Source of the DNA: Candidatus Omnitrophota bacterium
GTDB lineage: Bacteria > Omnitrophota > Omnitrophia > Omnitrophales > Aquincolibacteriaceae
Direction: 5' to 3'
NCBI GenBank assembly: GCA_043803685.1
Contig: JAZDJU010000008.1
Location: 1-25,637 of the forward strand
Length of the DNA: 25,637 nt
Shown here: positions 2,252 to 18,169 of the stretch, in pieces
How the letters are laid out: each line of letters begins with the position of its first letter
Numbering within the stretch: position 1 is the first letter of the stretch
Notes under the pieces: generated by a model
Database searches by the model: none
What the model was told of the DNA's origin: nothing
What the model saw: only the letters and a program-made list of their open reading frames with translations
Position numbers and translations under genes: made by a program

Positions 2252-3619
2252 TCAATCCTTCCAGGGGAACCGCTTCAGAAAAGACAGAACGCTCCAGTTC
2301 CGTCCTTTTTCTAAAAGGGGAGTGATCCCGACAACGCTGAAGAACAGTTCCACGCTTGAAACTTTTTGTGTCGCCGGGCGCACTTCGTGGAAATGGCGAG
2401 AGAGCAGGAAATGGGAGAGAAAACGCAGGACCGCCGAGATCGCGAAAAGGGTCAGGATCCTGGAACCGTTCAGCATGGGAAGTCGCTCCGCAAGATACCC
2501 GCCCAGTCCCGCCCCGATGAATGTGGCGATCCCATTAATGAAGCCGAAATATCCGAGGCAGCGCATTCGTTTGCCAGGGCTCACCGCGTCATAAATGAAA
2601 TTCAGGGAACACAGGTTGAAGCCGCCCCACACGAATCCCGCGAAGATCTCGATCGCGAAAAGATAAGCAAGGTTCGACGAAAAGATCCAGAGGAGCGGGA
2701 TCAGGGGGATCAAGAGGCTTGTCGCTTTGAGCACGCGGGCGTTCCCGATCTTGTCGGCGTGTCTTCCCCAGATCGGGAACGAGACCAGGCTTGCCACCAC
2801 AGCGCCCATATGGATGGACATGTAGGTGAGGTAGCTGAAGTGGAGGTCCTGGAGCATGTAGACGCTGAAATAAGGCGCGGCGAGCGTTGTGGCGAACGTG
2901 ATGCTCGCGACATAAAAAACGAACTTCACAAAATTACTTTCCCGGAAGCGTCTCAAAAACATAAAGAACGTGAACCGGTCTCCCGGCTTGTGAAGTTCTG
3001 GGACATCCTGCATACGGGTCATCAGACCTGAGGAAACAAAGCGCGCGAGGGCCGTGGCTCCGAAGAGGATACAAAAACCGGCGCCTGTGGAGAAAGCCTT
3101 AAAGGCTGTAAGCAAGATCCCTCCCAGAACGGTCGTGATCATTCCGGCGATCCCTGTGACGCGCGATCGCCAACCGAAGTATTGGCCTCGTTCTTCCGGG
3201 GCGAGGTAGTCGCTCGTGAGTCCTCCCCAGATCGTGGCGATGAGGTTCGCGAGGACCCGGAACAGAGTGACGCAAAAAATAAGAGCCAGGATCCGCGAAT
3301 GAAAGAAGAAGAAAGGGAAGATCGCCAGGGGTAGCAGGAAAAGAGCCTGAAGGAGTGTCGCGCGCACCAGGAAACGGAGACGGCTCCCGAAGAGCTCCAC
3401 GATCTTGACCGCGAAAAATTGTGAAAAAGAACCCAAAAGGTGAGGGATCGCCACCAGAAAGCCAATGTCCATCGGGGTGGCTCCGAGAAAGAGGCCGAGC
3501 GGGATCAGATATTCGTCCGTCGACGCTTGCATGACGGTTGCGGCGATCCCTTCCTTCCATGAGACGTCCAGGCTCTTGCGGAAAGGATGTTGGGAAAAAT
3601 AAGCCGGCAACTTGAGCAT
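2252..3619 (-). CDS. MFS transporter, substrate unknown
   Basis: 455 aa with about 12 hydrophobic segments. Contains an MFS motif-A-like WGRHADKIGNARVL and the loop signatures LAPEERGQYFG and VSPGKRMRCLG. Confidence 0.88.
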   Translation of the reverse strand: MLKLPAYFSQHPFRKSLDVSWKEGIAATVMQASTDEYLIPLGLFLGATPMDIGFLVAIPHLLGSFSQFFAVKIVELFGSRLRFLVRATLLQALFLLPLAIFPFFFFHSRILALIFCVTLFRVLANLIATIWGGLTSDYLAPEERGQYFGWRSRVTGIAGMITTVLGGILLTAFKAFSTGAGFCILFGATALARFVSSGLMTRMQDVPELHKPGDRFTFFMFLRRFRESNFVKFVFYVASITFATTLAAPYFSVYMLQDLHFSYLTYMSIHMGAVVASLVSFPIWGRHADKIGNARVLKATSLLIPLIPLLWIFSSNLAYLFAIEIFAGFVWGGFNLCSLNFIYDAVSPGKRMRCLGYFGFINGIATFIGAGLGGYLAERLPMLNGSRILTLFAISAVLRFLSHFLLSRHFHEVRPATQKVSSVELFFSVVGITPLLEKGRNWSVLSFLKRFPWKD

Positions 3620-3698: not shown

Positions 3699-6092
3699 AT
3701 GAGTCCTCGTCGTGCGGGAAAAAGCGATCACCGGTCCCGGAAAGTCTCTTGCCCTGCTTCCAAGAAAACCCAAACCTCTCTCAGATCCCGGACCCTTCAC
3801 AAACGGAACGGCGATGCCATTTTTCAGGAAGAACGGCAGAACTGGAAAGCTGTTTTCGACAGTTCGCAGGACGGCGTCATGATCGCGGACATCGCCCGGA
3901 AGAAGTTCCTGAGTTGTAACAAAACGATCACAAAGATGCTGGGCTTTCCGGAATCAGAGCTACTCGGTTTATCCGCCAAGGACATCCATCCGCCCCAGGA
4001 ACTGAAGCGTGCCCTGACGGGTTTCAACCTTCTTGCCCGCGGTCAAGCGTCCGTTGTGAGCGATATCCCGATGAGACGCAAGAACGGAAGTATCTTTTAC
4101 GCGGATATCAGCGGTTCCCGCGTGAATTTTTTCGGTCGCAAATGCCTGGTCGGTTTTTTTCGCGATATCACTGAGCGCAAACGGGCGGAAGAAGAAGTCC
4201 GGCAGGCGCTTTCCCTGAAGCGGGCCACTTTGGAATCCACGGCGGACGGGATCCTCGTGGTGGACGGCGTGACGGGTAAGGTCATGGATTTTAATGACCG
4301 GTTCTGCCAATTATGGAAGGTCCCAAGGACGGTCCTTCGGTACCGGGAAGACAAGAAGCTATTGCGATACGTTCTGTCCCAGATGAAAGATCCCGTTCGC
4401 TTTCTCTCAAAGGTGAAGGAACTCTACCGGTATCCCCGGAGGAACAGTTTTGATGTTCTGGAATTTAAGGACGGAAGGATTTTTGAACGCTACTCGCATC
4501 CCCAACTTTTGGATGGCAGGCCGGTAGGGAGGGTTTGGAGTTTTCGCGACGTGACTCAGCATAAACGTGTGGAAGCGGATCTCCAGGCCAGCGAACAGCG
4601 TTACCGCGGTATTTTTGAATTTTCTCACGACGCCATGATGACCCTGGAACCGCCTTCCTGGAAGTTCACTACCGCTAATATCTCGATGGTCCGAATGTTT
4701 CGCGCGAAGAATGCGGCCCAACTGTTTTCTCATAGCCCTTGGGCCCTGTCGCCTGCGTGGCAGCCGGGTGGCCGCGCTTCTGCCGAAAAGGCCAAGGAGA
4801 TGATCGGGACTGCGATCCGAAAAGGTTCTCACTTTTTCGAATGGACTCACCGGCGGCTTGACGGCACCACGTTTCCTGCCGAAGTTCTATTGACCAAAAT
4901 GGAGAGAGACGGGGGAGTGTTGCTTCAGGCGACGGTGAGGGATATCACCGAGCGCAAGAAGGCCGAGGATTTTCTCAGGGAACACCGTCATCAACTCTCA
5001 CAGGTCATTGATACCGTGCCGCATATGATCTTTGCTGAGGACGGGGCGGGCCGGTTCTTGCTGGTGAATCGCGCGGTGGCTCGCGCGTACGGTGTCGAGC
5101 CCCGGGAGCTCGTCGGAGCCCGGAGGCAGGATGTCCATAAGGTTCGCGAGGAAGCTAAGGGTTATATCAAGGTCAACAGGAACGTCTTGGCGAACGATAC
5201 GGCTCAGGTTCTTCCCGGGGAATTTTTCACGGATGCTCATGGGAAAAAGCATATTCTCCAGACGATCCGGATCCCGTTTAAGATGGTGGGTGCTGAGAAG
5301 AAATGCATTCTGGGGGTCTCCGTGGACGTCACGGAACAGAAGAAGGTCGAGGAATTCCGCAACGATATTGTGCGGACGGTGTCCCATGAGCTTCGCACGC
5401 CTCTTTCGATCCAGAAGGAGGGGATCAGTCTTCTGATGGATGGGGTCGCGGGGCCGGTCAACGCGGGGCAAAAAGAGGTGCTCGTTGCGGTCATGCGAAA
5501 CATCGATCGCTTGGCGCGTATGATCACGAGTCTTCTGGATATATCAAGTATCGAAAGCGGTCAGATCAAACTTTCGAAGCAGGTGGTGGACTTGACGGTC
5601 CTTGTGAAGGAAGTGGTCGGCGGTTTTAAAGGGCGCGCCGGTGAGAAGGCTATCGACCTTAGTGTTAAATTGCCTCTGGGACCTATCTCTGTTCTTGCGG
5701 ACCCGGACAAGATCGCGCAGGTCCTGAGCAATATGGTCGACAATGCTCTCAAATTCACCGCCGGAAAAGGGACGGTCGAGGTTTTCTTGACCGCGCGGAA
5801 AAGGGACGTAGAATGCGAGGTGCGGGACAGCGGTATTGGGATCGCGCCGGAGCATCTTGGAAGGCTGTTTGAAAAATTCCAGCAGTTCGCGCGGACGGTT
5901 GGGCCGGGAGAGAAGGGTTTCGGGCTTGGACTTTCGATCGCCAAGGGGATCATCGATCTGCACGGGGGCCGGATACGGGTCCAAAGCAAACTGGGCCAAG
6001 GGACCCGGGTAGCGTTTTTGCTACCGCTCTATAGTACGGAAGAATCCCGTCATCCGGCAGGCGAGCCTGTTCATCATGCAAAGGAGGATTGA
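3699..6092 (+). CDS. Cytoplasmic multi-PAS sensor histidine kinase (about 4 PAS/PAC + HisKA + HATPase)
   Basis: Four PAC ends (RDITERK, RDVTQHK, RDITERK, VDVTEQK), H-box VSHELRTPL, N-box SNMVDNALKF, G1 DSGIGI, G2 GFGLGLSI. No transmembrane segment. The exact start is uncertain. Confidence 0.95.
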   Translation: MSPRRAGKSDHRSRKVSCPASKKTQTSLRSRTLHKRNGDAIFQEERQNWKAVFDSSQDGVMIADIARKKFLSCNKTITKMLGFPESELLGLSAKDIHPPQELKRALTGFNLLARGQASVVSDIPMRRKNGSIFYADISGSRVNFFGRKCLVGFFRDITERKRAEEEVRQALSLKRATLESTADGILVVDGVTGKVMDFNDRFCQLWKVPRTVLRYREDKKLLRYVLSQMKDPVRFLSKVKELYRYPRRNSFDVLEFKDGRIFERYSHPQLLDGRPVGRVWSFRDVTQHKRVEADLQASEQRYRGIFEFSHDAMMTLEPPSWKFTTANISMVRMFRAKNAAQLFSHSPWALSPAWQPGGRASAEKAKEMIGTAIRKGSHFFEWTHRRLDGTTFPAEVLLTKMERDGGVLLQATVRDITERKKAEDFLREHRHQLSQVIDTVPHMIFAEDGAGRFLLVNRAVARAYGVEPRELVGARRQDVHKVREEAKGYIKVNRNVLANDTAQVLPGEFFTDAHGKKHILQTIRIPFKMVGAEKKCILGVSVDVTEQKKVEEFRNDIVRTVSHELRTPLSIQKEGISLLMDGVAGPVNAGQKEVLVAVMRNIDRLARMITSLLDISSIESGQIKLSKQVVDLTVLVKEVVGGFKGRAGEKAIDLSVKLPLGPISVLADPDKIAQVLSNMVDNALKFTAGKGTVEVFLTARKRDVECEVRDSGIGIAPEHLGRLFEKFQQFARTVGPGEKGFGLGLSIAKGIIDLHGGRIRVQSKLGQGTRVAFLLPLYSTEESRHPAGEPVHHAKED

Positions 6093-6096
6093 AGTC

Positions 6097-6474
6097 ATGT
6101 CTGAGGTGAAGAAAAAGATCCTCTTTATGGACGACGAGCCGGACCAGATCACGATGGTCTCTCTGCGGCTTGCGAAGAATGGTTACACAGTCGTCTCAGC
6201 CTCGGACGGAGAAGAAGGTCTCAAAAAAGCTGTGGAAGAAAAGCCCGATCTTATTCTGATGGATGTGCTGATGCCCGGGCTTGACGGTTTCGAAGTTTGC
6301 CGGAGACTCCGGAAGAACCCTGTGACAAAACATATCCCGATCATTTCCACCACCGCTGCGGGCGTGGATGACATTGAAGCGCAATGTCTCGCGGCTGGCG
6401 CAGATGCCTGCGTTCGCAAACCCTACGATTCCGCGGACCTTCTCTCGAAGATCCGCCAGTTCCTCAAAAAATAG
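6097..6474 (+). CDS. Single-domain response regulator (receiver only)
   Basis: KILFMDDE, DLILMDVLMP (phospho-Asp), conserved T and KP. Start moved to ATG 6097 because SD AAGGAGG lies at 6081-6087. Confidence 0.93.
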   Translation: MSEVKKKILFMDDEPDQITMVSLRLAKNGYTVVSASDGEEGLKKAVEEKPDLILMDVLMPGLDGFEVCRRLRKNPVTKHIPIISTTAAGVDDIEAQCLAAGADACVRKPYDSADLLSKIRQFLKK

Positions 6475-6600
6475 GATTTTGTGAACCCTGAGCTTGGATG
6501 AACAAAGCAGGTCTCGGGTTTCTTGAACGCGTAATAGAGCGGAAGCCATAACCCCTTCATTCGCGAAAATATTTTGCTTCCTGGGAGTTACCCCTCCACG

Positions 6601-6807
6601 TAGAATACGGTGCTTTTGAACCAAGCAGATATCAGGTCTTTCGGGGGAGATGTCTAGGGGCGAAGGGGGAAATCCGCGGTGTTTTCGTGGATCTTTGCTC
6701 ATCTTGTCTAATGCCGGGCTTTCGAGTCGCAGTGCAATGTCCGGCCATCTTTCTTCGTAAGTCCCCGATATCAGATTCCTCAAAAACTTTCACCCGGGGA
6801 GGCAAGT
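6601..6807 (+). promoter_or_regulatory. Putative -10 (TAGAAT 6601-6606) and long structured 5' leader (riboswitch-like candidate)
   Basis: Complementary segments found by eye: 6643-6652/6746-6755, 6658-6665/6693-6700, 6672-6678/6686-6692, 6713-6717/6741-6745, plus a UUCG loop at 6721-6724. TCCCCG at 6762-6767 is complementary to CGGGGA at 6795-6800, which overlaps the SD. Confidence 0.45.
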
Positions 6808-8418
6808 ATGAATCTTCAAAGACCGAACGCGAATGACGCCACGCGTACCGCCAACCGCTCCAAAGACATTGCTCCGCAAAGTGGTATTTGTACCCGGTGT
6901 GTGGATGGATGCCGGGGCAATTGCGAAGTTTTCAAAGCTACGTTTCGTTCACGGGAACTCATTTATCCGGGACCTTTCGGAGATGTGACGGCTGGCGGCG
7001 ACAAGGACTATCCGATCGATTATTCCCATCTCAATATCCACGGGTACGCGCTCGGCTGTAAGGGGCTGCCCAAGGGGACGGCAGGGAATTCCGATACCGC
7101 GCGGTTTCCGGACGTCAATACCGAGACCGAATATGGTTGGGATCGCAAGGTCAAGATGGACGTCCCTGTTTTTACGGGCGCATTGGGCTCGACAGAGATC
7201 GCGCGCAAGAACTGGGAACACTTCGCGGTGGGCGCTGCTATTTCCGGCATGACGATCGTGTGCGGTGAGAACGTCTGCGGCATCGATCCGAAGCTGGTCC
7301 TGAACAAGGACAAAAAGGTCAAGGAAGCTCCGGATATGGACCGCCGGATCGAAACTTACAAGCGCTATTATCGCGGCAAAGGCGAGATCCTCATCCAGAT
7401 GAACGTGGAAGATACGCGCCTGGGTGTCGCGGAATATATCCTCAACGAGCACAAGATCGAAACGATCGAATTGAAGTGGGGGCAGGGCGCAAAGTGTATT
7501 GGCGGCGAGATCAAGGTGAACACGCTGGAACGCGCGCTGGAACTCCAGAGGCGCGGTTATATCGTGACGCCCGATCCATCGGATCCGGTGAACCAGGCCG
7601 CTTTCAAGGACGGCGCCATCAAGGAATTCGAGCGGCACAGTCGTCTCGGATTCATTGGGGAAGAAGAGTTCTACAAGGAGGTCGCGAGACTTCGCAAGCT
7701 CGGGTTTAAACGCATTACGCTCAAAACCGGCGCGTACGGTTTGCGGGAGTTGGCGATGGCGCTCAAGTGGGGTTCCAAGGCCAAGATCGATCTTCTCACG
7801 ATCGACGGGGCTCCGGGCGGCACGGGGATGAGTCCGTGGCGCATGATGGAAGAGTGGGGGATGCCCTCGATCTATCTCCATTCCGCGGCCTATGAGTTCG
7901 CGGAGATCCTTCGCAAGAAGGGTGAGCGTGTTCCCGATCTTGCGTTCGCGGGCGGTTTTTCAACGGAAGATCATATCTTCAAGTGCTTGTCCCTGGGAGC
8001 GCCGTACGTGAAAGCGGTCTGTATGGGACGCGCGCTCATGATCCCCGGGATGGTCGGAAAGAATATCGGCCATTGGATCGAAGGGAACGATCTTCCGAAG
8101 ACCGTCAGCGATTTCGGGACCACACCGGAGCAGATATTCGTTTGCTACGAAGAGGTCATGAAGCTTGTCGGGAAGAACGAGATCAAAAAGATCCCGCTCG
8201 GAGCGATCGGGATCTATAGTTACGCGCAGAAACTCAAAGTGGGTCTCCAGCAGCTGATGGCCGGGGCGCGGTGTTTTGATGTGCCTTCGATCAGCCGTAA
8301 GGAGTTGATGTCCCTGACCGATGAATGCGCGAAGGTCACTGGGATCCCGTACCTCATGGAGTCTTATCGCAGTGAGGCGCTAGCGGTTCTGAAGGGCGGT
8401 AAAGCCGGTAAGAAGTAA
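6808..8418 (+). CDS. Stand-alone FMN-binding glutamate synthase family protein
   Basis: IELKWGQGAKCIGGE, ITLKTG, TIDGAPGGTG, AFAGG, KCLSLGA and CMGRA match the GltS FMN barrel. N-terminal CxxCxxxCxxxC. SD GGGGAGG at 6796-6802. Confidence 0.88.
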   Translation: MNLQRPNANDATRTANRSKDIAPQSGICTRCVDGCRGNCEVFKATFRSRELIYPGPFGDVTAGGDKDYPIDYSHLNIHGYALGCKGLPKGTAGNSDTARFPDVNTETEYGWDRKVKMDVPVFTGALGSTEIARKNWEHFAVGAAISGMTIVCGENVCGIDPKLVLNKDKKVKEAPDMDRRIETYKRYYRGKGEILIQMNVEDTRLGVAEYILNEHKIETIELKWGQGAKCIGGEIKVNTLERALELQRRGYIVTPDPSDPVNQAAFKDGAIKEFERHSRLGFIGEEEFYKEVARLRKLGFKRITLKTGAYGLRELAMALKWGSKAKIDLLTIDGAPGGTGMSPWRMMEEWGMPSIYLHSAAYEFAEILRKKGERVPDLAFAGGFSTEDHIFKCLSLGAPYVKAVCMGRALMIPGMVGKNIGHWIEGNDLPKTVSDFGTTPEQIFVCYEEVMKLVGKNEIKKIPLGAIGIYSYAQKLKVGLQQLMAGARCFDVPSISRKELMSLTDECAKVTGIPYLMESYRSEALAVLKGGKAGKK

Positions 8419-8431
8419 TCCGTCTTTTATG

Positions 8432-8472
8432 GAGAGGCGACCCCGGGCTCGAAAGGGGTCGCCTCTCTTTTT
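8432..8472 (+). terminator. Intrinsic terminator after the GltS-like gene
   Basis: Perfect 13-bp stem GAGAGGCGACCCC (8432-8444) / GGGGTCGCCTCTC (8455-8467), followed by TTTTT. Confidence 0.88.
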
Positions 8473-8473
8473 C

Positions 8474-8502
8474 TTGACAAATGATACAATGATGGTATCA
8501 TT
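8474..8502 (+). promoter_or_regulatory. Sigma70 promoter of the Rrf2 operon with an overlapping 23-bp palindromic operator
   Basis: TTGACA at 8474-8479, 16-bp spacer, extended -10 TGg-TATCAT at 8493-8501. Inverted repeat AATGATAC-N7-GTATCATT at 8480-8502. Confidence 0.8.
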
Positions 8503-8507
8503 CACGC

Positions 8508-8969
8508 ATGAAACTTATCACGCGCAACACCGATTATGCGATGCGGGCTCTTTGCTATATCGCTCAGCAGGGCAGCCCCTCGGTCTCCGCGGCCGAGATG
8601 GTGGAGCGGCTCAGGATCCCGCGCCCGTTCCTGCGGAAGATCCTGCAGGTCTTAAGCGGCGAAGGCATCCTGAGGTCGACCAAGGGACAGGGAGGCGGTT
8701 TCTCTTTAGCTTATGCGAAGGAGAAAGTTCTGCTGACGGATCTGATACGGATCTTCCAGAACACGATCCAGTTAAACGAATGTGTTTTTAAGAAAAAGGT
8801 ATGTCCGAACCGGAGTACCTGTATGTTGAAAAAAGAGATCGATTCGATCGAGAAAGATGTGCTTGAGCGGCTTCACAAGATCTCGATCGCTTCATTAGTG
8901 GTTGGCGGGAGCGGTTCACGCCCGCGCGAGAAAGGAAAACGTCATGGCCATTCTACAAGCGGGCGCTGA
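8508..8969 (+). CDS. Rrf2 family transcriptional regulator, NsrR-like, predicted Fe-S binding
   Basis: TDYAMRAL, LRKILQVL, STKGQGGGFSL (winged helix) and a C-terminal C-X6-C-X5-C (8781-8822). Confidence 0.93.
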   Translation: MKLITRNTDYAMRALCYIAQQGSPSVSAAEMVERLRIPRPFLRKILQVLSGEGILRSTKGQGGGFSLAYAKEKVLLTDLIRIFQNTIQLNECVFKKKVCPNRSTCMLKKEIDSIEKDVLERLHKISIASLVVGGSGSRPREKGKRHGHSTSGR

Positions 8970-10722
8970 AACCCGGTTCAAAGGACTGCCGCTGAGTCCC
9001 GGAGTTTCCGTGGCGCGCGTGTGTCTTTTCAATGAAAAACGTCACATGAGCCTTCCCGTCGCGAATGTGACGCCCAAGGAAGTCCAGAACGAAGGCGATC
9101 GATTTCGCAGTGCCCTCGCGCTTGTGAAGGAAAAGCTCGCGCTCCTTATCAAGGAAGTAGAGGAACGCGTCGGGAAAGCGGAGTCCGAGATCTTTGTGGC
9201 CCAAAAAATGATCCTCGAAGACCCCCTGATGATCCAGAGGGTGACGGACCATATTCGCAGCAAGAACTTCAATGCTGAGAAAGCCGTCATTAGTTCGCTC
9301 GATTTTTTCGAAGAACAGCTTTCCGCAATGGATAACGCCTATATCCGTGAACGGGCCTCCGACATCGGCGAAGTGAAACGCCGGCTACTCGACGCGCTCG
9401 CCAACATGAGTCCGTCGTTTCAATGTGAAAGCGATTCCTTCTGCCAGAAGGGGAAGAACCGGATCGTCATCGCCCAGGAACTCACGCCGAGCCTTACGAT
9501 GGAGCTCAACACGGATTTTATCCGCGGATTCGTGACCGATCGCGGTGGCGTGGCGTCGCATGCGGCTATTTTGGCCCGCGCGCTCCGGATCCCGGCCGTG
9601 AGTGGCATCCCGGGGATCCATGACATGATCTTCTGCGGCACCGAGGTGCTCGTGAACGGCGATACCGGCGAAGTCGTGATCTGGCCAAGCAAGAAAACTC
9701 TCGAGGAATATCCTGACCTTCAACAGAAGGGCGCCGAAGAAATTCCTGCGGTGGAACCTGTCGCGGGGCTTAAGGTGTTCGCCAATCTGAATCTCGCGAA
9801 AAAAGTGAAGGAGGCTGTCGATCAAAAGGCGGAAGGCATCGGACTTTACCGGACGGAGTTCGAATTCTTTGCGGCAGGGAAGATCCTCCGCGAGGCGGAG
9901 CAATACGATCTTTATCTTGAAGTTCTGAAAGCCATGAAAGACAAACCGGTCTATTTCAGGATGCTGGACCTGGGCGCCGACAAGACCGCGGATTTTCTCA
10001 AGCTTCCCAAAGACCAGAATCCCGCGCTGGGTTTTCGGGGGAGCCGTCTTCTTCTGGGACATCCCGAGCTTTTCAGAAATCAGGCGAGAGCGCTTGCCCG
10101 CGCGTCCAAACACGGTCGCGTTCATGTGATGTATCCCATGGTGATCGACATCGAGCAATTCCGGAAGCTCAAAAAAGCCTTCGAAGAGGCGACCGGAGAT
10201 ATCTCCCAGGGCGAGATCAAGCACGGCTTGATGTTCGAAGTGCCTTCCGCCTGTCTCGATGCCGAGGAGATCCTTCGGGAGGCGGATTTTGGCAGCATTG
10301 GCACGAACGATCTGATCCAGTATCTCTTTGCCGTGGACCGCGACAATGAACTTGTCGCCTATGACCACCATCCGGACCGCAAGATCTTCTGGCAGCTGAT
10401 CCGCCACGTCGCGCATGCGGCCAGGAAACATCACAAACCTCTTTCAGTCTGTGGCGAACTGGCATCGAATCCCGGTCACGCAAGGCAGTTGCTTGCGGCA
10501 GGGATCCGCTCGGTCAGCGTGTCCGCCAAGATGATCCCGGGGCTGAGGATCGCGATCAAGAACAAGCCCAAGCTATCGAAAAAAGGACGTAGCCCTTTTT
10601 TCGCGAGAAACGCCGAACGGGCAACGCACCACGCAAAAGCTGAGAAAACGTTGCGCGTTGCGCGTCGTACGGTGAGTAAGAAGAAAATCAATTCCAGAAC
10701 AAGGCATCGAAACAGTCAATAA
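8944..10722 (+). CDS. ptsI: Phosphoenolpyruvate-protein phosphotransferase (PTS Enzyme I family)
   Basis: YIRERASDI, GGVASHAAILAR (phospho-His at 9559-9561), GIGLYRTEF, RMLDLGADK, NPALGFRG, MFEVPSA, SIGTNDLIQY, SVCGELA. Start moved to ATG 8944 (SD AAGGA at 8932-8936). Overlaps the Rrf2 gene by 26 nt. Confidence 0.92.
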   Translation: MAILQAGAETRFKGLPLSPGVSVARVCLFNEKRHMSLPVANVTPKEVQNEGDRFRSALALVKEKLALLIKEVEERVGKAESEIFVAQKMILEDPLMIQRVTDHIRSKNFNAEKAVISSLDFFEEQLSAMDNAYIRERASDIGEVKRRLLDALANMSPSFQCESDSFCQKGKNRIVIAQELTPSLTMELNTDFIRGFVTDRGGVASHAAILARALRIPAVSGIPGIHDMIFCGTEVLVNGDTGEVVIWPSKKTLEEYPDLQQKGAEEIPAVEPVAGLKVFANLNLAKKVKEAVDQKAEGIGLYRTEFEFFAAGKILREAEQYDLYLEVLKAMKDKPVYFRMLDLGADKTADFLKLPKDQNPALGFRGSRLLLGHPELFRNQARALARASKHGRVHVMYPMVIDIEQFRKLKKAFEEATGDISQGEIKHGLMFEVPSACLDAEEILREADFGSIGTNDLIQYLFAVDRDNELVAYDHHPDRKIFWQLIRHVAHAARKHHKPLSVCGELASNPGHARQLLAAGIRSVSVSAKMIPGLRIAIKNKPKLSKKGRSPFFARNAERATHHAKAEKTLRVARRTVSKKKINSRTRHRNSQ

Positions 10723-10735
10723 CGGGAGGTTTTTT

Positions 10736-12406
10736 ATGAGCATGTTTTGTTTTCAGTGTGAGCAGACGGCGAAAGGCAAAGGGTGCGATGTTCAAGGGGT
10801 TTGCGGGAAATCGCCGGAGGTGGCGACGTTGCAGGATCTTTTGATCCACGCCGCGAAAGGGATCGCGATCTACGCGGACATGGCACGGGAGATTGGGGTG
10901 AAAGACAAGCAGACGGATCTCTTTGTGATCGAGGCGCTTTTCGCGACGGTCACAAACGTGGATTTTGATGTCGAGCGATTGAAGGAAACTCTCGGGCGGG
11001 CTTACGCGGCCAAGGAAAAGATCAAAAAGCTGTTCCTGGAGGCTTACAAAAACAAGAACGGACGGGAATTTACCGGAGACCTTCCGACCGCCGCTTTCTG
11101 GAAACCCGCGGAAAATATTGCCGGGCTTTTCGAACAGGGCGCCAAGGTCGGCATTCTCTCCGACAAGACGTTAAATGAGGACATCCGCAGTCTCCGTGAG
11201 CTCCTTCTTTACGGGCTCAAGGGAATGGCGGCTTACGCGGATCACGCGCATGTGCTCGGGCGTGAGGATGAGGAAGTGGACGCGTTTTTCCATAAAGGGC
11301 TTCGCGCGATCACCAACGGCAGTCTGACGGTGAATGATCTCGTGGGACTCAATATGCAATTCGGGATGGTCAATCTCAAGTGTCTCGAGATCCTCGATAA
11401 AGCGCACACGGATCATTTCGGGCATCCGGTGCCGACGGGTGTGTCGCTCGGGGCGAAAAAAGGTCCCGCGATCCTCGTGTCGGGCCACGATCTTCTGGAT
11501 CTGGAGCAGCTCCTTCAGCAGACCGAAGGCAAAGGGGTGAATATCTACACGCATGGCGAAATGTTGCCGGCGCACGGATATCCGGGGCTCAAAAAGTACA
11601 AGCATCTCGTCGCCAATTACGGCGGCGCGTGGCAGGACCAGGCCAAGGAATTTGACGCTTTTCCGGGGGCGATCCTGATGACCACGAATTGCATCCAGCA
11701 ACCGCGCGAAAGTTACAAGGGCCGGATCTTCACGACGGGTCTTGTGGCGTGGCCGGGAGTGCAACATATCAACCCTGTGAATGGGAAAAAGGATTTTTCG
11801 GTCGTGATCAAGAAGGCGATCGAGGCGGGCGGTTTCCCGCAGGACATTCCCGCGAAGAACATTGTCGTGGGATTTGGTCACAACGCGGTGCTCGGAGTCG
11901 CTGACAAGGTTGTCGGCGCCGTGAAAGCGGGACTGATCAAGCATTTCTTCCTGGTGGGCGGCTGCGACGGCGCGAAACCCGGACGGAATTACTACACGGA
12001 TTTCGCTCAACAAGCGCCGAAGGACACCGTGATCCTGACCCTGGCGTGCGGCAAATACCGGTTCAACAAACTCGAGTTCGGGGACATTGGCGGCATTCCG
12101 AGGCTCCTCGATATGGGGCAGTGCAACGACGCCTATTCCGCGATCCAGGTGGCCGTGGCGCTTGCGAAGGCTTTCGGCTGCGGCGTGAACGATCTGCCGC
12201 TTTCGATGATCCTTTCCTGGTACGAGCAAAAGGCGGTCTGTATTCTGCTCACGCTTTTGTCGCTTGGGATCCAGAATATTCGCATCGGGCCTTCGCTCCC
12301 GGCGTTCGTGAGCCCCAACGTGCTCAAGGTGCTTGTCGAGAAATTCAATATCAAGCCCGTGACTACGGCCCAGGCCGACCTCGACGCGATTCTGGTAAAA
12401 AAGTAA
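10736..12406 (+). CDS. hcp: Hybrid cluster protein (hydroxylamine/NO reductase)
   Basis: MFCFQCEQT...GC...GVCGK (cubane ligands), SGHDL, YTHGEMLPAH, TTNC, GGCDG, LACGK, GQCND, SWYEQKA. SD GGGAGG at 10724-10729. Confidence 0.98.
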   Translation: MSMFCFQCEQTAKGKGCDVQGVCGKSPEVATLQDLLIHAAKGIAIYADMAREIGVKDKQTDLFVIEALFATVTNVDFDVERLKETLGRAYAAKEKIKKLFLEAYKNKNGREFTGDLPTAAFWKPAENIAGLFEQGAKVGILSDKTLNEDIRSLRELLLYGLKGMAAYADHAHVLGREDEEVDAFFHKGLRAITNGSLTVNDLVGLNMQFGMVNLKCLEILDKAHTDHFGHPVPTGVSLGAKKGPAILVSGHDLLDLEQLLQQTEGKGVNIYTHGEMLPAHGYPGLKKYKHLVANYGGAWQDQAKEFDAFPGAILMTTNCIQQPRESYKGRIFTTGLVAWPGVQHINPVNGKKDFSVVIKKAIEAGGFPQDIPAKNIVVGFGHNAVLGVADKVVGAVKAGLIKHFFLVGGCDGAKPGRNYYTDFAQQAPKDTVILTLACGKYRFNKLEFGDIGGIPRLLDMGQCNDAYSAIQVAVALAKAFGCGVNDLPLSMILSWYEQKAVCILLTLLSLGIQNIRIGPSLPAFVSPNVLKVLVEKFNIKPVTTAQADLDAILVKK

Positions 12407-12418
12407 AAGTCTGAAAAA

Positions 12419-12450
12419 AGGGGGTCAGGCACCGTGGTGCCTGACCCCCT
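12419..12450. terminator. Palindrome after hcp (terminator or REP-like element)
   Basis: AGGGGGTCAGGCACC-GT-GGTGCCTGACCCCCT: perfect 15-bp arms, preceded by an A-run and followed by CTTGCTT. Confidence 0.7.
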
Positions 12451-12455
12451 CTTGC

Positions 12456-12527
12456 TTCCCCCTTTGTAAAGGGGGAATGAGGGGGATTTTCAAATCTCCC
12501 CTTGCCCCTCTTTTAAAAAGAGGGGGA
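12456..12527. repeat. Inverted doublet of CCCCCTTTnnAAAGGGGG...AGGGGGATTT REP-like units
   Basis: TTCCCCCTTT-GT-AAAGGGGGAA (12456-12477), GGGGGATTT-TC-AAATCTCCC (12481-12500), CCCCTCTTTT-A-AAAAGAGGGG (12505-12525). The second unit is an imperfect reverse complement of the first. Confidence 0.75.
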
Positions 12528-12592
12528 TTACGGTATAAGCACTTGTGATTAGCTACTGCATGAAGTGTGATAGGCCCGGTATAGGGGAGTCC

Positions 12593-12621
12593 TTGATATG
12601 AAGGGCTTTCCATGGTGTAAT
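12593..12621 (+). promoter_or_regulatory. Putative internal sigma70 promoter for radical SAM-nadA-ilvD-ftn
   Basis: TTGATA at 12593-12598, 17-bp spacer, TGg-TGTAAT at 12613-12621. Confidence 0.4.
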
Positions 12622-12687
12622 ACGTGCCCGTCGAGCGGAATCCCCCGGAGAATGCCGCGACGGTTTTCTCTCAGATTGAGGCTTCAT

Positions 12688-13485
12688 ATGGAACAACCTA
12701 AGTATAAATACATTTACGGGCCCGTCTCTTCCTGGAGGCTGGGCCGTTCTCTTGGGATCGACCCCATTTCCTCGTTCCAGAAAACTTGTACGTTTGATTG
12801 TATGTATTGTCAGGCGGGGAAGACGGAATTTTTTTCCGACAGGCGCGAAGTTTTTGTTCCAACCGAAGCCCTGGTGCATGAATTGCGTTCCATGCCCGAC
12901 GTTCCCGTCGATTACATCACCTTCGCGGGGAACGGCGAACCGACTTTGGCAGCGAATCTCGGGGAAATGATCCGCGCGGTCAAAATGGTCCGTAATGAGA
13001 AAGTCGCGGTGATCACGAATTCTTCTTTGATCGATCGCAAGGACGTGGTCGAGGACCTGCTTCTGGCCGATCTCGTGGAGGCAAAGCTCGACGCGTCTTC
13101 TGCCGAGTCTTTCAATATAGTGAACCGGCCCATGTCGGAGATCCGCACGGAAGATATGGTGGCTGGGCTGAAGGCGTTCCGGGCGGTCTACCGCGGACAC
13201 CTGGTGCTTCAGGTGATGTTCGTGGCGAGCAACAAGCTGAGCGCTCCGGCGATGGCGAAACTTGCGCATGAGATCGGACCCAACGAGATCGAGATCAACA
13301 CACCGCTTCGGGCCTGTGCCGTGAAGCCGCTCTCGATCGAGGATATGGAAAGGATCACCGCGGTTTTTCGCGGGATCTGCGGCGACCAGATCAAAGTGCG
13401 GAGCGTGTACGAAGTTCAACGTGAAAAAAGCAAGCCATTCTGCGAGCCCTCGACCGAGCGTCGGCGCGTAAAAGAGGTTTTTTAA
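12688..13485 (+). CDS. Radical SAM protein of unknown function (COG0731-like, YGPVxSxRLGxSLG family)
   Basis: YIYGPVSSWRLGRSLGID, CTFDCMYC (CxxxCxxC at 12787-12810), TFAGNGEPTL, ITNSSL, KLDA. Start moved to ATG 12688 (GAGG at 12678-12681). Confidence 0.9.
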   Translation: MEQPKYKYIYGPVSSWRLGRSLGIDPISSFQKTCTFDCMYCQAGKTEFFSDRREVFVPTEALVHELRSMPDVPVDYITFAGNGEPTLAANLGEMIRAVKMVRNEKVAVITNSSLIDRKDVVEDLLLADLVEAKLDASSAESFNIVNRPMSEIRTEDMVAGLKAFRAVYRGHLVLQVMFVASNKLSAPAMAKLAHEIGPNEIEINTPLRACAVKPLSIEDMERITAVFRGICGDQIKVRSVYEVQREKSKPFCEPSTERRRVKEVF

Positions 13486-14496
13486 ATGAAAAATATTTCA
13501 AACGACGCAACCACGCAGGAACTTCTGGGACAGATCGCCCGTCTGAAAAAAGAGCGGGAGGCTGTGATCCTGGCGCATAATTATCAGGCGCCGGAGATCC
13601 AGGACCTCGCCGATTTTACCGGTGATTCGCTCGAGCTGAGCCGTATTGCGGCCAAGACGCCGGCGGAGGTGATCGTGTTCTGCGGCGTGAAATTCATGGC
13701 CGAAACCGCTTTTATCCTTTCGCCTAAAAAGACGGTCCTTCTTCCGGTGATGGAAGCCGGCTGTACGCTGGCCGATTACGCGACCGCCGAACAAGTCCGT
13801 GAAATGAAGAAGAAACATCCGGACGCGATCGTCGTGACCTACGTCAATAGCTCCGCCGAAGTAAAGGCGGAGACTGATGTTTGTTGCACCTCCGCAAACG
13901 CCGTCGAGATCGTTCGATCGATCAACAAAAACCGGCCGATCCTTTTTGTTCCGGATTACAATCTGGGGCACTATGCGGCCAAGATGACGGGGCGCGAGTT
14001 GATCCTTTGGGACGGTTGCTGTCCGACGCATGCGCTTCTGTCGACCTTCGCGGTCGCGAAGGCGAAGGATAAGTGGCCGAAGGCGCAGGTGATCATGCAT
14101 CCTGAATGCAAGCCCGCGACCCTGGAACTTGCCGATTTTGTGGGAAGCACTTCCGGGATGCTCAAGTACGTGAAGTCGCAGCCGGCCGGAACTTCTTTTG
14201 TCGTCGGGACCGAGGTCGGGTTGCTTCACCGGATGCAGAAAGAGAATCCGGATAAGATCTTTCATGTGGCTTCGGAATATTTGATCTGCCCCATGATGAA
14301 AATGATCACCTTGAAGGACGTCAAAGAGTCGCTTGAAAAAATGAAATATGTTGTGACTGTGGAAGAGGATGTTCGCGCGCGCGCCCAGGCGGCGGTCGAC
14401 GCGATGCTTCGCTACACGGGCGCGAGTCAGGAACCGGTGAAAGCACCGGCAGAAACGGAATTTTCCATAGGAACAGAAGAGGGAGGAGCGGTATGA
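13486..14496 (+). CDS. nadA: Quinolinate synthase A
   Basis: [59 protein letters not shown]; three [4Fe-4S] Cys present. Confidence 0.97.
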
Positions 14497-16265
14497 GAAA
14501 AGCAGTGAATCCGGGGATCGCGGCGATCCAGAAGCACGGAAGCCGGGTGGTGGGTGAGGGCATGCACATGTTGCCGGCAGCGGGACTCATGGTGGCCGCG
14601 GGCGTTTTGGGGAACGTGACTGACCGGAAAAAGAAATTCGTGACCGTCATTAATTCTTATACGACGCACATCCCCGGACATGTTCATTTGAATATCCTGG
14701 GCGAAAAGCTCGTGGCCGCGCTCAAGGCCAAGGGTTACAACGTCTGGTACGCCAATATCGGCGCGGCGATCTGCGACGGCATTGCGATGGGACACTTCGG
14801 GATGAAATATTCCTTGCCCTCTCGCGAGTTGATCACCGACCAGATCGAAAGCATTGTGGGGGCACATCCCTGCGATGGCTGGATCGGGATCGGGAACTGC
14901 GACAAGATCGTCCCCGGGATGCTGAACGCCATGGTGCGTCTGAACATTCCGTCGGTCTACGTGAGCGGCGGGCCGATGCTGGCCGGCGCGAAGAAGACAG
15001 ACCTCATCACGATCTTTGAAGGCGTCGGAAGCGAAGCGGCGGGAAAAATGTCACCCGCCAAGCTGGAAGATCTCGCCAACACCGCGTGCCGCACTTGCGG
15101 CAGCTGCGCCGGCATGTTCACGGCCAATTCCATGAATTGCCTCGCGGAAGCGATCGGTCTTGCTCAGCCGGGGAATGGAACGATCCCCGCGGCGGTGTGG
15201 ACGGATGGAAGCAAAACTTCGTGGGCGGTGAACCCTGAGCGTATCAAGCTCGTGGAACAAGCGGCGGATACTTTGGAGAACGCGCTTCTCAATAACGTTC
15301 GGCCGCTCGATATCGTGACCAAAAAGTCGATCGATAACGCTTTTATCCTGGATCTCGCGATGGGAGGTTCGACCAACACGATCCTTCACACGTTGGCGCT
15401 GGCTTGCGAAGCGGGCATTACTTATCCGATCAAGCGACTGAATGAACTTGCGAAACTGACGCCCACGGTTTGTAAGGTATCGCCGTCGCGTCCGGAGATC
15501 CATCTCGAGGACGTTCACGTGAAAGGCGGGATCGCGGCTATTCTGAAGGCGGTTTCTCAAGGGAGCCGGGCGCCGCTCGACCTGGATCTTGAGACATGCG
15601 TCGGAAGTTTGCGGAACGTCGTGGAAAAAGCGCCGGCCCCGGACGGGGATGTGATCCGTTCCTGCGCGAACGCTTTCTCGAAAGAAGGCGGGCTCGCGAT
15701 CCTGTACGGGAATATCGCGCCGGAAGGTTCGGTCGTGAAGACGGCGGGTGTGGATAAGGAAATGATGCAGTTCACGGGGCGCGCGAAGTGCTACGACTCG
15801 CAGGAGAGCGCGCTTGAGGCTATCCTTAAAGGCAAGGTTGTGGACGGCGACGTGGTGGTGATCCGCTATGAAGGACCCCGGGGCGGTCCCGGAATGCAGG
15901 AAATGCTTTCACCGACTTCGGCTTTGAAAGGCCGGGGGATAAGAGCGGCGCTTGTCACCGATGGACGTTTTTCCGGCGGGACGCGCGGGCTTTGTATCGG
16001 CCACGTTTCTCCGGAAGCTGCCGCGGGAGGACCGATCGCGATCCTCAAGAACGGCGATACGATCACGATCGATGCCGCGAAAAGAACGATGAATGTCGAG
16101 TTGTCGGCAGGGGAGATCAAGAAGCGGCTCGCCAAGCGCAAGCCTTTTACGCCCAAGGTGACCGGCGGGTGGTTGGGCCGGTATGCCCTTCACGTGTTGA
16201 GCGCTCACACGGGCGCCGTAATGGATAATGTGATTTCAGTTTCGAAAAACAAAAAAAGGAGATAG
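14493..16265 (+). CDS. ilvD: Dihydroxy-acid dehydratase
   Basis: [76 protein letters not shown]. Overlaps nadA at ATGA. Confidence 0.96.
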
Positions 16266-16268
16266 ACC

Positions 16269-16757
16269 ATGATCAGCGAAAAAATGAACAAGGCGATCAA
16301 CGAACAGATCAATAAGGAGCTTTTTTCCGCTTACATTTACACCGGGATGGCGGCCTACGCGGCGTCGCTCAGTCTGAACGGCATCGCGAACTGGTTCCAG
16401 ATCCAGACGAAGGAAGAGATCGAACATGCCGTGAAGTTCATGAAGTACATCAACGAACAGGGCGGGACGGTCACCCTTAAGGCGATCGCTGCGCCGGACC
16501 AGAAGTTCACGTCGGTGGCGGGTCTCTTTGAAGAAACCCTGAAACATGAAAAGATCATCACCTCTTCGATCAAAGGGCTAGTCGAACTCGCCAAAAAAGA
16601 AGGCGACGCGGCGACCGAGATCTTCCTCCAGTGGTATGTGACCGAACAGGTGGAAGAAGAAGCGAATCCGACCGAGATCCTGCAGAAGCTCGCGATTGGC
16701 GGCAAGACCGGAAGCTCGCTCCTGATCCTTGACGGGATCCTGGGGCAACGGAAGTAA
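16269..16757 (+). CDS. ftnA: Non-heme ferritin
   Basis: QINKELFSAYIY, EEIEHA, HEKIIT, FLQWYVTEQVEEE (ferroxidase centre residues). Confidence 0.94.
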   Translation: MISEKMNKAINEQINKELFSAYIYTGMAAYAASLSLNGIANWFQIQTKEEIEHAVKFMKYINEQGGTVTLKAIAAPDQKFTSVAGLFEETLKHEKIITSSIKGLVELAKKEGDAATEIFLQWYVTEQVEEEANPTEILQKLAIGGKTGSSLLILDGILGQRK

Positions 16758-16765
16758 CCTTTTTT

Positions 16766-16828
16766 GTCATCCCCGCAAGTTTTAAGCGGGGATCCAGACC
16801 AGGGTAGGCTTTAGCGGGAATGAATGAC
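16766..16828. repeat. GTCATCCCCGC...GCGGGGATCCAG REP-like palindrome with a degenerate inverted partner
   Basis: GTC-ATCCCCGC-AAGTTTTAA-GCGGGGAT-CCAG at 16766-16797, followed by the remnant half GCTTTAGCGGGAATGA(ATGAC). Confidence 0.65.
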
Positions 16829-16843
16829 GGAGGAAAGACGAAT

Positions 16844-18037
16844 ATGAAAGCGATCCCGATAGCGGAGAATATCTGGTGGGTGGGGGCGATCGATTGGAAT
16901 GCCCATCATTTTCACGGGCAGACCTTTACCACGAAGCGTGGAACGACGTACAACGCTTACCTGATCGTGGACGAGAAGATCACGCTCATCGATACGGTCT
17001 ACGGCCCTTTTACGGAGGAGATGCTTCAGAGGATCCGGAGCGTGGTGCCGCCTGAGAAGATCGACACCATCATCGCCAACCACATCGAACCCGATCATTC
17101 GCAGGCGCTCCCCGCCCTCGTCAAACTTTGTCCCAAGGCCAAAGTTTACGGGCGCGCGCGCGCCGGTCAGGGACTCGAGCGCTATTACGGGCAGAAGTTC
17201 AATTTTCAGGCTGTGAAGACCGGGGACCGGTTGAGCCTTGGGAAACGGACGCTTCAGTTCATCGAGATCCCGATGATCCACTGGCCGGACAGCATGATGA
17301 GCTATCTCATCGAAGACCAGACGCTTTTCTCCAACGATGCCTTTGGCCAGCATTACGCCACAAGCGAGCGTTTTGACGACGAAGTGCCGCAGGAGACCTT
17401 GATGGAGGAAGCTGGGAAATATTACGCCGGCATTCTGTGGCCGTTCAGTCATCTGATCCTCCAACGTCTCGCCGAGATCGAGAAAATGGGTATTCCGATC
17501 AAGACGATCCTGACCTCGCATGGCCTTAGCTGGCGCAAGAACCCGGGCAAGATCATCGAGGCCTATAAACGTTGGGGCGCGAACACCACGATGCCTAAGA
17601 TCGTCATTGCCTATGAGACGATGTGGGGTTCCACCGCGAAAATGGCGCAGAAGATCGCCGACGGAATCCAGGACGCGGGCGTGAAGTTCGAGCTTTATGA
17701 TATGGCTCAGTCGGACCGCACGGAAGTGATCCACGACATGCTCGACGCGAAGGCCTTCATCGTGGGTTCTTCGAACCACGACAGCGGCATTCTGCCGAAC
17801 ATGACGTCTTTTATGGAATTCCTGAAAGGCCTGCATCCGAAGAATCGCATCGGCTGCGCCTTTGGCTCCTACGGCTGGTCTGGGGTCGCGATCCAGTCGC
17901 TCCAGAACACGCTCGCAGCCGCGGGAGTGGAGATCGTCCAACCTCTGCTTTCGGTGATCTACGCGCCGGATGAGGCGCAGCTCACCGCCTGCTACGAACT
18001 TGGCAAGAAAATGGCGCAACTTGTTCTCAATAAATAA
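16844..18037 (+). CDS. fprA: Class A flavodiiron protein (NO/O2 reductase)
   Basis: GTTYNAYLI, NHIEPDHS, HWPDSM, FSNDAFGQH and SHG (diiron ligands); flavodoxin domain YETMWGST and FGSYGWSG. Start moved to ATG 16844 (GGAGG at 16829-16833). Confidence 0.95.
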   Translation: MKAIPIAENIWWVGAIDWNAHHFHGQTFTTKRGTTYNAYLIVDEKITLIDTVYGPFTEEMLQRIRSVVPPEKIDTIIANHIEPDHSQALPALVKLCPKAKVYGRARAGQGLERYYGQKFNFQAVKTGDRLSLGKRTLQFIEIPMIHWPDSMMSYLIEDQTLFSNDAFGQHYATSERFDDEVPQETLMEEAGKYYAGILWPFSHLILQRLAEIEKMGIPIKTILTSHGLSWRKNPGKIIEAYKRWGANTTMPKIVIAYETMWGSTAKMAQKIADGIQDAGVKFELYDMAQSDRTEVIHDMLDAKAFIVGSSNHDSGILPNMTSFMEFLKGLHPKNRIGCAFGSYGWSGVAIQSLQNTLAAAGVEIVQPLLSVIYAPDEAQLTACYELGKKMAQLVLNK

Positions 18038-18115
18038 TTTATTGGAAACAAGTGCAGCACTAAGCGGTCTATTGAATTTTTATCGGTAGCTCAGTGCGGT
18101 GCTCGTTCTCGTGCG

Positions 18116-18150: not shown

Positions 18151-18169
18151 TAAAACAAGGAGGTAACCC

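Follow-up and report, generated by a model that had tools for sequence, protein, structure and literature searches.

An orphan Enzyme I between an Rrf2-family regulator and hcp in Omnitrophota: a candidate regulatory phosphotransferase with a conserved four-cysteine signature

Enzyme I (EI) of the phosphotransferase system (PTS) is among the best-studied signalling enzymes of bacteria and, to our knowledge, it is thought to read carbon status (the phosphoenolpyruvate (PEP)/pyruvate ratio and alpha-ketoglutarate), not redox state. What, then, is an EI doing between the gene of an Rrf2-family regulator and hcp, the gene of a hybrid-cluster protein, in a Candidatus Omnitrophota bacterium? The locus lies on contig JAZDJU010000008.1 (assembly GCA_043803685.1), of which positions 1 to 25,637 were analysed; this whole stretch of 25,637 nucleotides is called the window. 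A first-pass annotation had described the gene as an orphan EI and proposed that it couples PEP status to the nitric oxide (NO)/Fe-S response. The explanation that we favour, and to which we give an even chance, is that the gene encodes a catalytically competent EI of the regulatory type, which would be co-induced with NO and O2 defence and whose N-terminal domain would probably contain a site that binds a metal or is redox-active. The features of the locus are the following:

8431-8468, plus strand: hairpin with a U-tract (UUUUUCUU) and a 14-bp stem, which ends the glutamate-synthase-like gene (-30.5 kcal/mol, z -5.7, 0/200 shuffles as stable)
8474-8501, plus strand: sigma-70-like promoter TTGACA-16-TATCAT with a TG extension (11/12 matches)
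8480-8502, plus strand: candidate Rrf2 operator, a perfect palindrome AATGATAC-N7-GTATCATT that overlaps the -35/-10 interval
8508-8969, plus strand: Rrf2-family regulator (PF02082, 99.3 bits; TIGR00738, 95.1 against a cut-off of 73.3)
8944-10722, plus strand: PTS Enzyme I, 592 residues (Pfam, TIGR01417, motifs, AlphaFold2 model and Foldseek)
10736-12406, plus strand: hcp, hybrid-cluster protein/hydroxylamine reductase (PF03063, 586 bits; NF003658, 846.7 against 367)
12419-12450, plus strand: hairpin after hcp with a 14-bp stem and a weak U-tract (CUCUUGCUU; -30.7 kcal/mol, z -6.1, 0/200 shuffles as stable)

The first question is whether the protein is a working EI at all. Its three domains stand in the canonical order, PEP-utilisers_N (PF05524, E = 3.8e-26), mobile (PF00391, E = 4.2e-20) and PEP-binding (PF02896, E = 1.2e-83), and it scores 417.9 bits on the TIGR01417 model (PTS_I_fam, cut-off 341.7). 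The catalytic motifs, previously read as intact, are so: GGVASHAAILAR contains H206 (9559-9561), GTNDL occupies residues 453-457, and CGE (503-505) includes C503 (10450-10452). H206, C503 and residues 453-457 line up with the same residues of the solved structures 2hro and 2wqd and are invariant in 87/87 homologs, and the alignment with solved EIs extends across residues 11-540. The AlphaFold2 model (pLDDT 84.4) has full-length EIs as its best Foldseek matches (9a4v, 2wqd and 2hwg; E = 1e-46 to 1e-42). The helical subdomain (PF05524), which is the HPr-binding part of known EIs, is kept as well. No domain and no catalytic motif of an active Enzyme I is missing, and the protein is predicted to be catalytically competent. 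It is not the classical EI-Ntr (PtsP), as had already been noted, for Pfam finds no GAF domain in it and its score on the PtsP model NF008283 (286.6) is below the cut-off of 583; the PtsI equivalog cut-off is not reached either (346.2 against 824). The scores ruled out a PEP synthase, a pyruvate phosphate dikinase or DhaM, the models of the first two being far under their cut-offs. One further cysteine, C437 (10252-10254; PSAC), lies a few residues past the MFEVP strand of the PEP-binding domain and is near-invariant; this position is mostly Ala in the canonical EI representatives. The gene starts at the ATG at 8944, which is shared with the homologs (MAI...), and a longer open reading frame (ORF) starting with TTG at 8902 was rejected because the homologs do not use it. 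The protein extends past the EI fold as follows:

10564-10719, plus strand: Lys/Arg-rich C-terminal tail of EI, residues 541-592 (pLDDT < 60)

The tails of the homologs are also basic and vary in length, with ...LRV(A/E)RR... common to the homologs P0040 and P0035. A frameshift or a fused small ORF was ruled out as the source of the tail, as neither of the other two reading frames is open and these two proteins have the tail as well.

The second question is whether EI is expressed together with its neighbours. The Rrf2 gene ends at 8969, 26 nt inside the EI gene, and the EI stop at 10722 is separated from the hcp start at 10736 by 13 nt containing GGGAGG; both distances agree with those given at first. 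No structure was detected at the EI-hcp junction (z 0.1). The promoter is the best of three sites in the 14 kb scanned (6000-20000). The palindrome is matched once in the window when up to three mismatches are allowed (0.01 expected), so that no second operator copy exists there at this threshold, and the related loci described below offer only a three-mismatch chance match in L026. Given the single promoter and operator, the overlapping or abutting genes and the flanking hairpins, Rrf2-EI-hcp looks like one transcription unit with a single promoter, which the hairpin at 8431-8468 would isolate from the glutamate-synthase-like gene. The anatomy (promoter/operator, gene spacing and hairpins) also fits the earlier proposal that this unit is under Rrf2 control. 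The product of hcp is above a second equivalog cut-off (TIGR01703, 755.4 against 360.8). The regulator has the NsrR of S. coelicolor as its best match in the PDB (5n07, E = 1.2e-8), and its D9, C92, C99 and C105 align with Asp, Cys, Cys and Cys of 5n07, which we take to be the cluster ligands. In S. coelicolor NsrR the [4Fe-4S] cluster is bound by an Asp and three Cys, a set that the regulator appears to have kept.

Is this order peculiar to one contig? One scan of genome contigs yielded 27 loci with related EI genes: 12 of the Omnitrophota type (L001-L010, L013 and L014), whose EIs are 70-87% identical to that of the window, and 15 more distant ones (48-56%). The closest EI proteins (70-92% identical) are metagenomic, those with a name belonging to Candidatus Omnitrophota. 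The EI orthologs do not sit in unrelated contexts, a possibility that had been raised at first: Rrf2 stands directly 5' of EI in 12/12 Omnitrophota loci, and the distant orthologs occur in other redox-stress operons. The Rrf2 and EI genes overlap by 17-26 nt in 11/12 Omnitrophota loci and are 2 nt apart in L010, while hcp lies 3' of EI in 11/12, the contig of L007 stopping before it. The palindrome recurs without mismatch and at one site per locus in each of the 11 loci for which upstream DNA is available, the sequence of its 7-nt spacer being variable; TTGACA is found directly 5' of it in 10 of the 11 (TTGGACA in L006). Since the gene 5' of the unit changes, being glutamate-synthase-like in the window, a glutamate dehydrogenase in eight loci and a photolyase in L001, the trio seems to move or behave as a unit. 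In five of the 12 loci (L001-L004 and L007) a hemerythrin-domain gene is inserted between EI and hcp. According to the available text of Rodionov 2005 (PMC1274295), the enterobacterial NsrR targets include hcp and the di-iron ytfE/dnrN, so the gene content of the operon fits nitrosative stress.

Two other elements were observed in these loci. A small Cys-rich ORF stands right before hcp in 5/12 (L001 12344-12589, L002 12334-12558, L003 12331-12552, L004 6200-6337 and L008 11699-11884) and is absent from the window; its product (MNWGCP.LE...C..L...C.P.Q.GC.L.G, followed by a basic tail) belongs to no Pfam family. In L006 (9459-9567), L010 (1136-1252) and L014 (107-197), about 100 nt separate the operator from the Rrf2 start, which is then GTG. 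This insert is bounded by a long inverted repeat (ccccgttagatctc ... gagatctaacggg), has no Rfam match and could represent a structured leader or a short mobile element.

The 15 distant loci come from Lentisphaerota, Kiritimatiellota, Phycisphaerae, Verrucomicrobiota, Auribacterota, Elusimicrobiota and unnamed bins, and in six of them (Lentisphaerota, Kiritimatiellota and Phycisphaerae) EI stands directly among redox-defence genes on one strand. Four more (L011, L020, L021 and L012) have related genes within 10 kb. With FDP for flavodiiron protein, G6PD for glucose-6-phosphate dehydrogenase, 6PGL for 6-phosphogluconolactonase and 6PGDH for 6-phosphogluconate dehydrogenase, the gene orders are:

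L015, L016: sigma-54 activator (N-terminal LMWPc and PAS domains), small ORF, thioredoxin-like gene, EI, rubrerythrin, Cys-rich ORF, DsbD, G6PD (also 6PGL in L016)
L018: Fur-family regulator, rubrerythrin, EI, ferritin, FDP, rubredoxin; adjoins a divergent hcp/HD/YgbA_NO operon
L026: FDP, EI, rubrerythrin, desulfoferrodoxin, ferritin, NAD(P)H oxidoreductase, Cys-rich ORF, DsbD, G6PD, 6PGL
L019, L025: thioredoxin-like gene, EI, (rubrerythrin-like gene), DsbD
L011: EI, dodecin, transketolase, 6PGDH, G6PD, 6PGL, with AhpC further on
L020, L021: ferritin and a rubrerythrin-like gene within 10 kb
L012: rubrerythrin and desulfoferrodoxin within 10 kb

EI is therefore embedded in redox operons in three lineages, namely Omnitrophota, the Lentisphaerota/Kiritimatiellota group and one Phycisphaerae locus, and the regulator gene nearby differs by lineage (Rrf2, sigma-54 activator or Fur-family). 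It is also an orphan at every locus examined. The window confirms what had been reported for it, with EI as the sole PTS match among its 22 plausible genes and 57 other ORFs of at least 80 residues (no HPr or EII); HprK is absent from it too, and the flanks of the 27 loci (up to 10 kb per side) contain no match to HPr, EII, EIIA, HprK or rpoN. The genes of the loci were called by a simple longest-ORF rule (92 + 74 + 80 ORFs scanned against Pfam), which misfires in high-GC loci, so that absences there are weaker. The small ORFs beside EI include no HPr and match no Pfam family even at E up to 1.

The pentose-phosphate, pyruvate kinase and phosphoglucose isomerase genes near EI in L011, L015, L016, L019-L021 and L026 bring to mind a metabolic helper, in which EI would convert PEP to pyruvate and thereby fuel reductant for Hcp, FDP and rubrerythrin. 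EI turnover is stoichiometric only and needs a phosphoryl acceptor, yet the unit encodes neither an acceptor nor a phosphatase, which makes this role very improbable.

Some of the accompanying genes have features of their own. The sigma-54 activators upstream of the EI run (L015 6929-8686 and L016 7163-8914) have a sensor part made of LMWPc (low-molecular-weight phosphatase/ArsC-like) and PAS domains. A protein of about 122 residues is encoded 5' of DsbD, after the rubrerythrin or oxidoreductase gene, in L015 (12139-12507), L016 (12266-12634) and L026 (11507-11896); it is rich in Cys (KECPNCHY...CGTSLAIEAG...CP.YC...C.NKCECAYVRD) and belongs to no Pfam family. Another small conserved protein (...KHLKEALE.SRKLTILADEGEASS.DDGCAVLYG..RDCAYKIRGRAERER...), with no Pfam family and no likeness to HPr, heads the EI gene runs of Lentisphaerota/Kiritimatiellota (L015 8865-9134, L016 9132-9389, L026 4780-4959 and L017 9102-9302), L017 having it yet no other stress genes.

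If EI belongs to the stress response, does its own sequence contain anything that could sense the stress? Beyond what the first-pass annotation had seen, namely in addition to the wider pattern just described, EI has a signature of four lineage-specific cysteines:

9022-9024, plus strand: C27
9424-9426, plus strand: C161
9442-9444, plus strand: C167
9634-9636, plus strand: C231

Besides the catalytic C503, these four are invariant in alignments of 20 and then of 87/87 homologs, and in the EIs of the loci that cover the sites C27 is kept in 20/20 and C161, C167 and C231 in 21/21. The Staphylococcus EIs (2hro and 2wqd) lack all four, with Tyr, Ala or Gln instead, and C161-C167 lies in a 6-residue insert. 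A profile search of EI relatives gave named matches from PVC taxa (the Planctomycetes-Verrucomicrobia-Chlamydiae superphylum) only. In a search of the full library, which gave 19,651 matches, the best 150 cluster representatives were examined, 146 of which cover all three regions. Among these 146, 89 have none of the cysteines and 23 have C27 with at least two loop cysteines: 13 with C27, two loop cysteines and C231, nine with C27 and at least three loop cysteines (CxxxxxCxxxxC) but without C231, and one with C231 and at least three loop cysteines together. None of the 146 combines C27 and two loop cysteines without C231, and none of the 23 has fewer than four cysteines in total. Sequences with the motif thus always have at least four, the fourth being supplied by position 231 or by the loop; a metal site with four ligands would be expected to show this pattern. 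According to the secondary structure of the AlphaFold2 model, the second long N-terminal strand closes with C27, C161 and C167 precede the strand 173-177, and C231 precedes the strand 234-238. If the topology of the N-terminal domain of E. coli EI is as we assume, the four cysteines presumably lie near the junction of the HPr-binding helical subdomain and the subdomain bearing the catalytic His. The set probably binds a metal, judging from its pattern of conservation, and such a site may plausibly make phosphotransfer sensitive to NO or oxidants.

Two fusions hint at a redox link and are suggestive in this respect. P0106 (707 residues; eight member sequences from one contig) has an N-terminal LMWPc domain (CVGNSCRS) fused to a Cys4 EI, this domain being the same as that of the sigma-54 activators of L015 and L016; its motif, we assume, resembles that of thioredoxin-coupled ArsC. 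P0297 (952 residues; one sequence on a 3.5-kb contig) is a complete FDP fused to a Cys4 EI, in the order in which the two genes stand in L026. Among fusions of more than 1037 residues, a search gave six matches (25-36% identical to the query), which turned out to be transporter, PEP-synthase and one other fusion, none in the Cys4 EI clade. The fusions could indicate that EI bypasses HPr and binds or phosphorylates a redox protein directly, be it the FDP, an ArsC/LMWPc-like domain or Hcp. The lack of an HPr gene near any of the 28 EI genes points the same way, as do the LMWPc domains with which the activators of L015 and L016 begin; the fold of LMW phosphatases resembles that of the PTS EIIB-cellobiose protein, which accepts the phosphoryl group on a Cys. 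Nevertheless, the HPr-binding subdomain (PF05524, at the E-value given above) is well conserved, each fusion is known from one contig, and the window has no LMWPc gene. A direct target is for these reasons improbable. As EI is PEP-competent by its motifs and keeps its HPr-binding subdomain, an HPr-type acceptor is rather expected elsewhere in the genome.

How these elements could work together can be outlined for the favoured explanation, that of a regulatory EI co-induced with NO and O2 defence. In a first step, a dimer of holo-Rrf2 would sit on the palindrome and repress the unit until NO or oxidants damage its cluster and it leaves the DNA, upon which the regulator, EI and Hcp would be produced together. 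In a second step, EI would autophosphorylate on H206 from PEP and hand the phosphoryl group on to a protein of the HPr type whose gene lies elsewhere, as part of a transporter-less regulatory PTS of the EI^R kind found in Planctomycetes, Chlamydiales and relatives. The third step is the boldest: C27, C161, C167 and C231 would bind Zn, as Zn(Cys)4, or an Fe-S cluster close to where the subdomain with the catalytic His meets the HPr-binding one, and phosphotransfer would change once this site is oxidised or nitrosylated. Besides the PEP/pyruvate ratio, the relay would in this way signal redox or NO stress, and it would shift carbon flux towards the supply of reductant for the detoxifying enzymes. 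A broader proposal, which we regard as tentative, is that of a deep EI lineage (the PVC superphylum plus Elusimicrobia) in which a Cys4 metal or Fe-S switch turned the PEP phosphorelay into a redox/NO signalling device wired into Hcp, FDP, rubrerythrin, thioredoxin/DsbD and pentose-phosphate operons, and maybe acting directly on redox proteins.

The main rival of the favoured explanation, which we hold to be somewhat doubtful and slightly less probable than the broader proposal, is that this EI is simply the sole housekeeping EI of a transporter-less regulatory PTS. In that case, it would stand in the operon through inheritance of the gene order and be functionally uncoupled from it, and the four cysteines would hold a structural zinc and sense nothing. 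Several observations favour it and weigh against a stress-coupled sensor. The gene order common to the Omnitrophota loci is in part synteny by descent, as these loci are close relatives. No stress genes were found in the flanks of five of the 15 distant loci (L017, L022, L023, L024 and L027, the last with 3.9 kb only), EI adjoining carA/guaA or glycosyltransferase genes in L017 and L022-L024. These five context-free relatives, including the short L027, nevertheless keep the cysteines, which are thus not tied to a stress context and could be purely structural. Moreover, organisms with EI^R are usually devoid of PTS transporters and require only one EI, according to the available text of Comas 2008 (PMC2405797). 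In a FastTree phylogeny of 102 rows, the deep nodes of which are poorly supported, the sequences with the loop-rich variant almost form a single clade (two changes for the label Cys4_ii); the ligand swap would accordingly represent one or two events and not 23. Taken together, the Cys4 rows fail to form a single clade on this tree and require seven changes. The loop C161-C167 has a pLDDT of only 63 in the AlphaFold2 model, each fusion could be an assembly or frameshift artefact, and no HPr-type acceptor occurs in the window or within up to 10 kb per side of the 27 loci.

The regulator adds further points of the same kind. It scores 52.6 on the NsrR equivalog NF008240, whose cut-off is 182, and the SufR-like, RirA and IscR models match it as well as or better than the NsrR model, all remaining under their cut-offs. 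The NsrR motif as published in the available text of Rodionov 2005 (PMC1274295), gATGyAT-N5-ATrCATc, is not matched by the palindrome, the 8-mers of which are spaced by N7; the ATG/CAT arms are common to both and the spacing is 4 bp longer. The failed equivalog score and the different spacing suggest a regulator that is NsrR-like in its ligands and targets but is not an NsrR, and it may respond to Fe-S status or to the redox state in general instead of to NO. The earlier description of the gene as NsrR-like and of the Rrf2 family, whose members are winged-helix proteins, agrees with this.

Against a sole housekeeping EI stand the three lineages with differently built redox operons near Rrf2, Fur-family or sigma-54 activator genes, the conservation of the regulator-gene overlap and of the single operator while the flanks change, and the two fusions to redox domains. 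On balance we prefer the co-induced regulatory EI.

The surroundings of the unit suggest yet another explanation. The genes of the window are mostly co-directional, the transporter gene being on the minus strand, and those 5' of the unit are:

100-2244, plus strand: glycogen phosphorylase
2252-3619, minus strand: MFS transporter
3699-6474, plus strand: PAS histidine kinase, then a single-domain response regulator
6808-8418, plus strand: glutamate-synthase-like gene, immediately 5' of the Rrf2-EI-hcp unit

After the hcp hairpin, 12598-18664 encodes a radical-SAM protein, NadA, IlvD, a ferritin, an FDP and a nitroreductase, all co-directional, a block whose products comprise Fe-S enzymes sensitive to oxidants as well as proteins that store iron or reduce O2 or NO. 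It is entire in L001, L002, L003, L006, L009 and L013 and partial in L004, L005, L008 and L014. Its position right after hcp in the window and six loci could mean that EI is itself labile under stress, owing to its catalytic Cys and metal site, and is in the regulon for replacement, like the downstream Fe-S enzymes NadA and IlvD; EI indeed has C503, the near-invariant C437 and four more Cys. Yet the block lies behind a strong hairpin and contains no copy of the Rrf2 palindrome in the window or the loci scanned, so that co-regulation is not implied, and replacement would leave the all-or-none, ligand-swapped cysteine set unexplained. This explanation is unlikely, if marginally less so than a direct redox target.

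Past the terminator, the 190-nt spacer between hcp and the radical-SAM gene contains several more G5/C5 hairpin-like repeats (12450-12545: ccccctttgtaaaggggg, gggggattttcaaatctcccc and cccctcttttaaaaagagggg). The order of the glycogen phosphorylase, MFS transporter, histidine kinase and response regulator genes is also that of L001, the first of them being 6.7 kb upstream of the unit. HPr of E. coli binds and activates glycogen phosphorylase; by analogy, this enzyme may be an output of the relay here, or its presence may be a coincidence. Further downstream, 18710-20462 encodes a MEDS-domain protein and then an adenylate/guanylate cyclase catalytic domain with Cys_rich_FGFR repeats (PF00839, E = 1.7e-16), an odd combination in a bacterium. 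Rfam gave no match in the window or in the three loci with long leaders, and no tRNA genes were found. A foreign island was ruled out, as the GC content is even over the window (0.51-0.59).

EI, the control of hcp by Rrf2/NsrR-type regulators and regulatory PTS branches are already known. The arrangement, which had been thought not to be a described system, was not found in the searchable literature (subscription journals being outside its scope), nor was any paper on EI in stress operons, on the PTS of Omnitrophota or on a Cys or metal site in EI. With respect to this literature, EI as a fixed member of an NO/O2-defence operon, its recurrence over PVC lineages and the Cys4 signature are new. 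Four conserved extra cysteines in a stress-operon EI may mean that EI senses redox stress. With the placement in NO/O2-defence operons of at least three phylum-level lineages and the lineage-wide Cys4 with its ligand-swap pattern, a specific function that can be tested, and a site at which sensing may take place, can be proposed for the regulatory EI of bacteria without PTS transporters. The analysis also defines, in the uncultured phylum Omnitrophota, a compact pair of Rrf2 operator and operon that is amenable to in vitro work.

Among known systems, the canonical PtsI of E. coli and Staphylococcus (2hwg, 2wqd and 2hro) shares with the window EI the three-domain fold and the catalytic His and Cys motifs. 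The window EI differs in being 30-36% identical to the solved full-length EIs and below the PtsI equivalog cut-off, in its four extra Cys, 6-residue insert and basic C-terminal tail, and in not being beside ptsH/crr. EI-Ntr (PtsP) is a regulatory EI paralog that works without sugar transport, but unlike it the window EI has no N-terminal GAF domain. The NsrR regulon of proteobacteria, Bacillus and Streptomyces (hmp, ytfE and hcp-hcr; Rodionov 2005, PMC1274295, in its available text) resembles the unit in having an Rrf2 protein with Cys ligands at hcp, to which five relatives add a hemerythrin-type gene, and in operators that, like the palindrome of the window, overlap the promoter and have ATG...CAT arms. 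Operator spacing and the sub-cut-off NsrR score of the window Rrf2 set the two apart, and the NsrR regulons of that paper contain no PTS gene, the word "phosphotransferase" having no occurrence in its main text as available. The closest counterpart is the EI^R of Comas 2008 (PMC2405797), described in the available text as a stand-alone EI without GAF in Planctomycetes, Chlamydiales and relatives that lack PTS transporters; it was proposed to serve signalling only, with a link to sigma-54, and is given there no known function and no functional data. The proteobacterial EI^R genes of that description sit with ptsH and the rpoN cluster, whereas HPr, EIIA, HprK and rpoN are absent within 10 kb at every locus studied here and the neighbours are redox-defence genes; the Cys signature, too, is without mention in the available text on EI^R. 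Like EI^R as published, the window EI is stand-alone and has no GAF domain, and the sigma-54 activator genes upstream of EI in L015 and L016 recall the sigma-54 link proposed for it.

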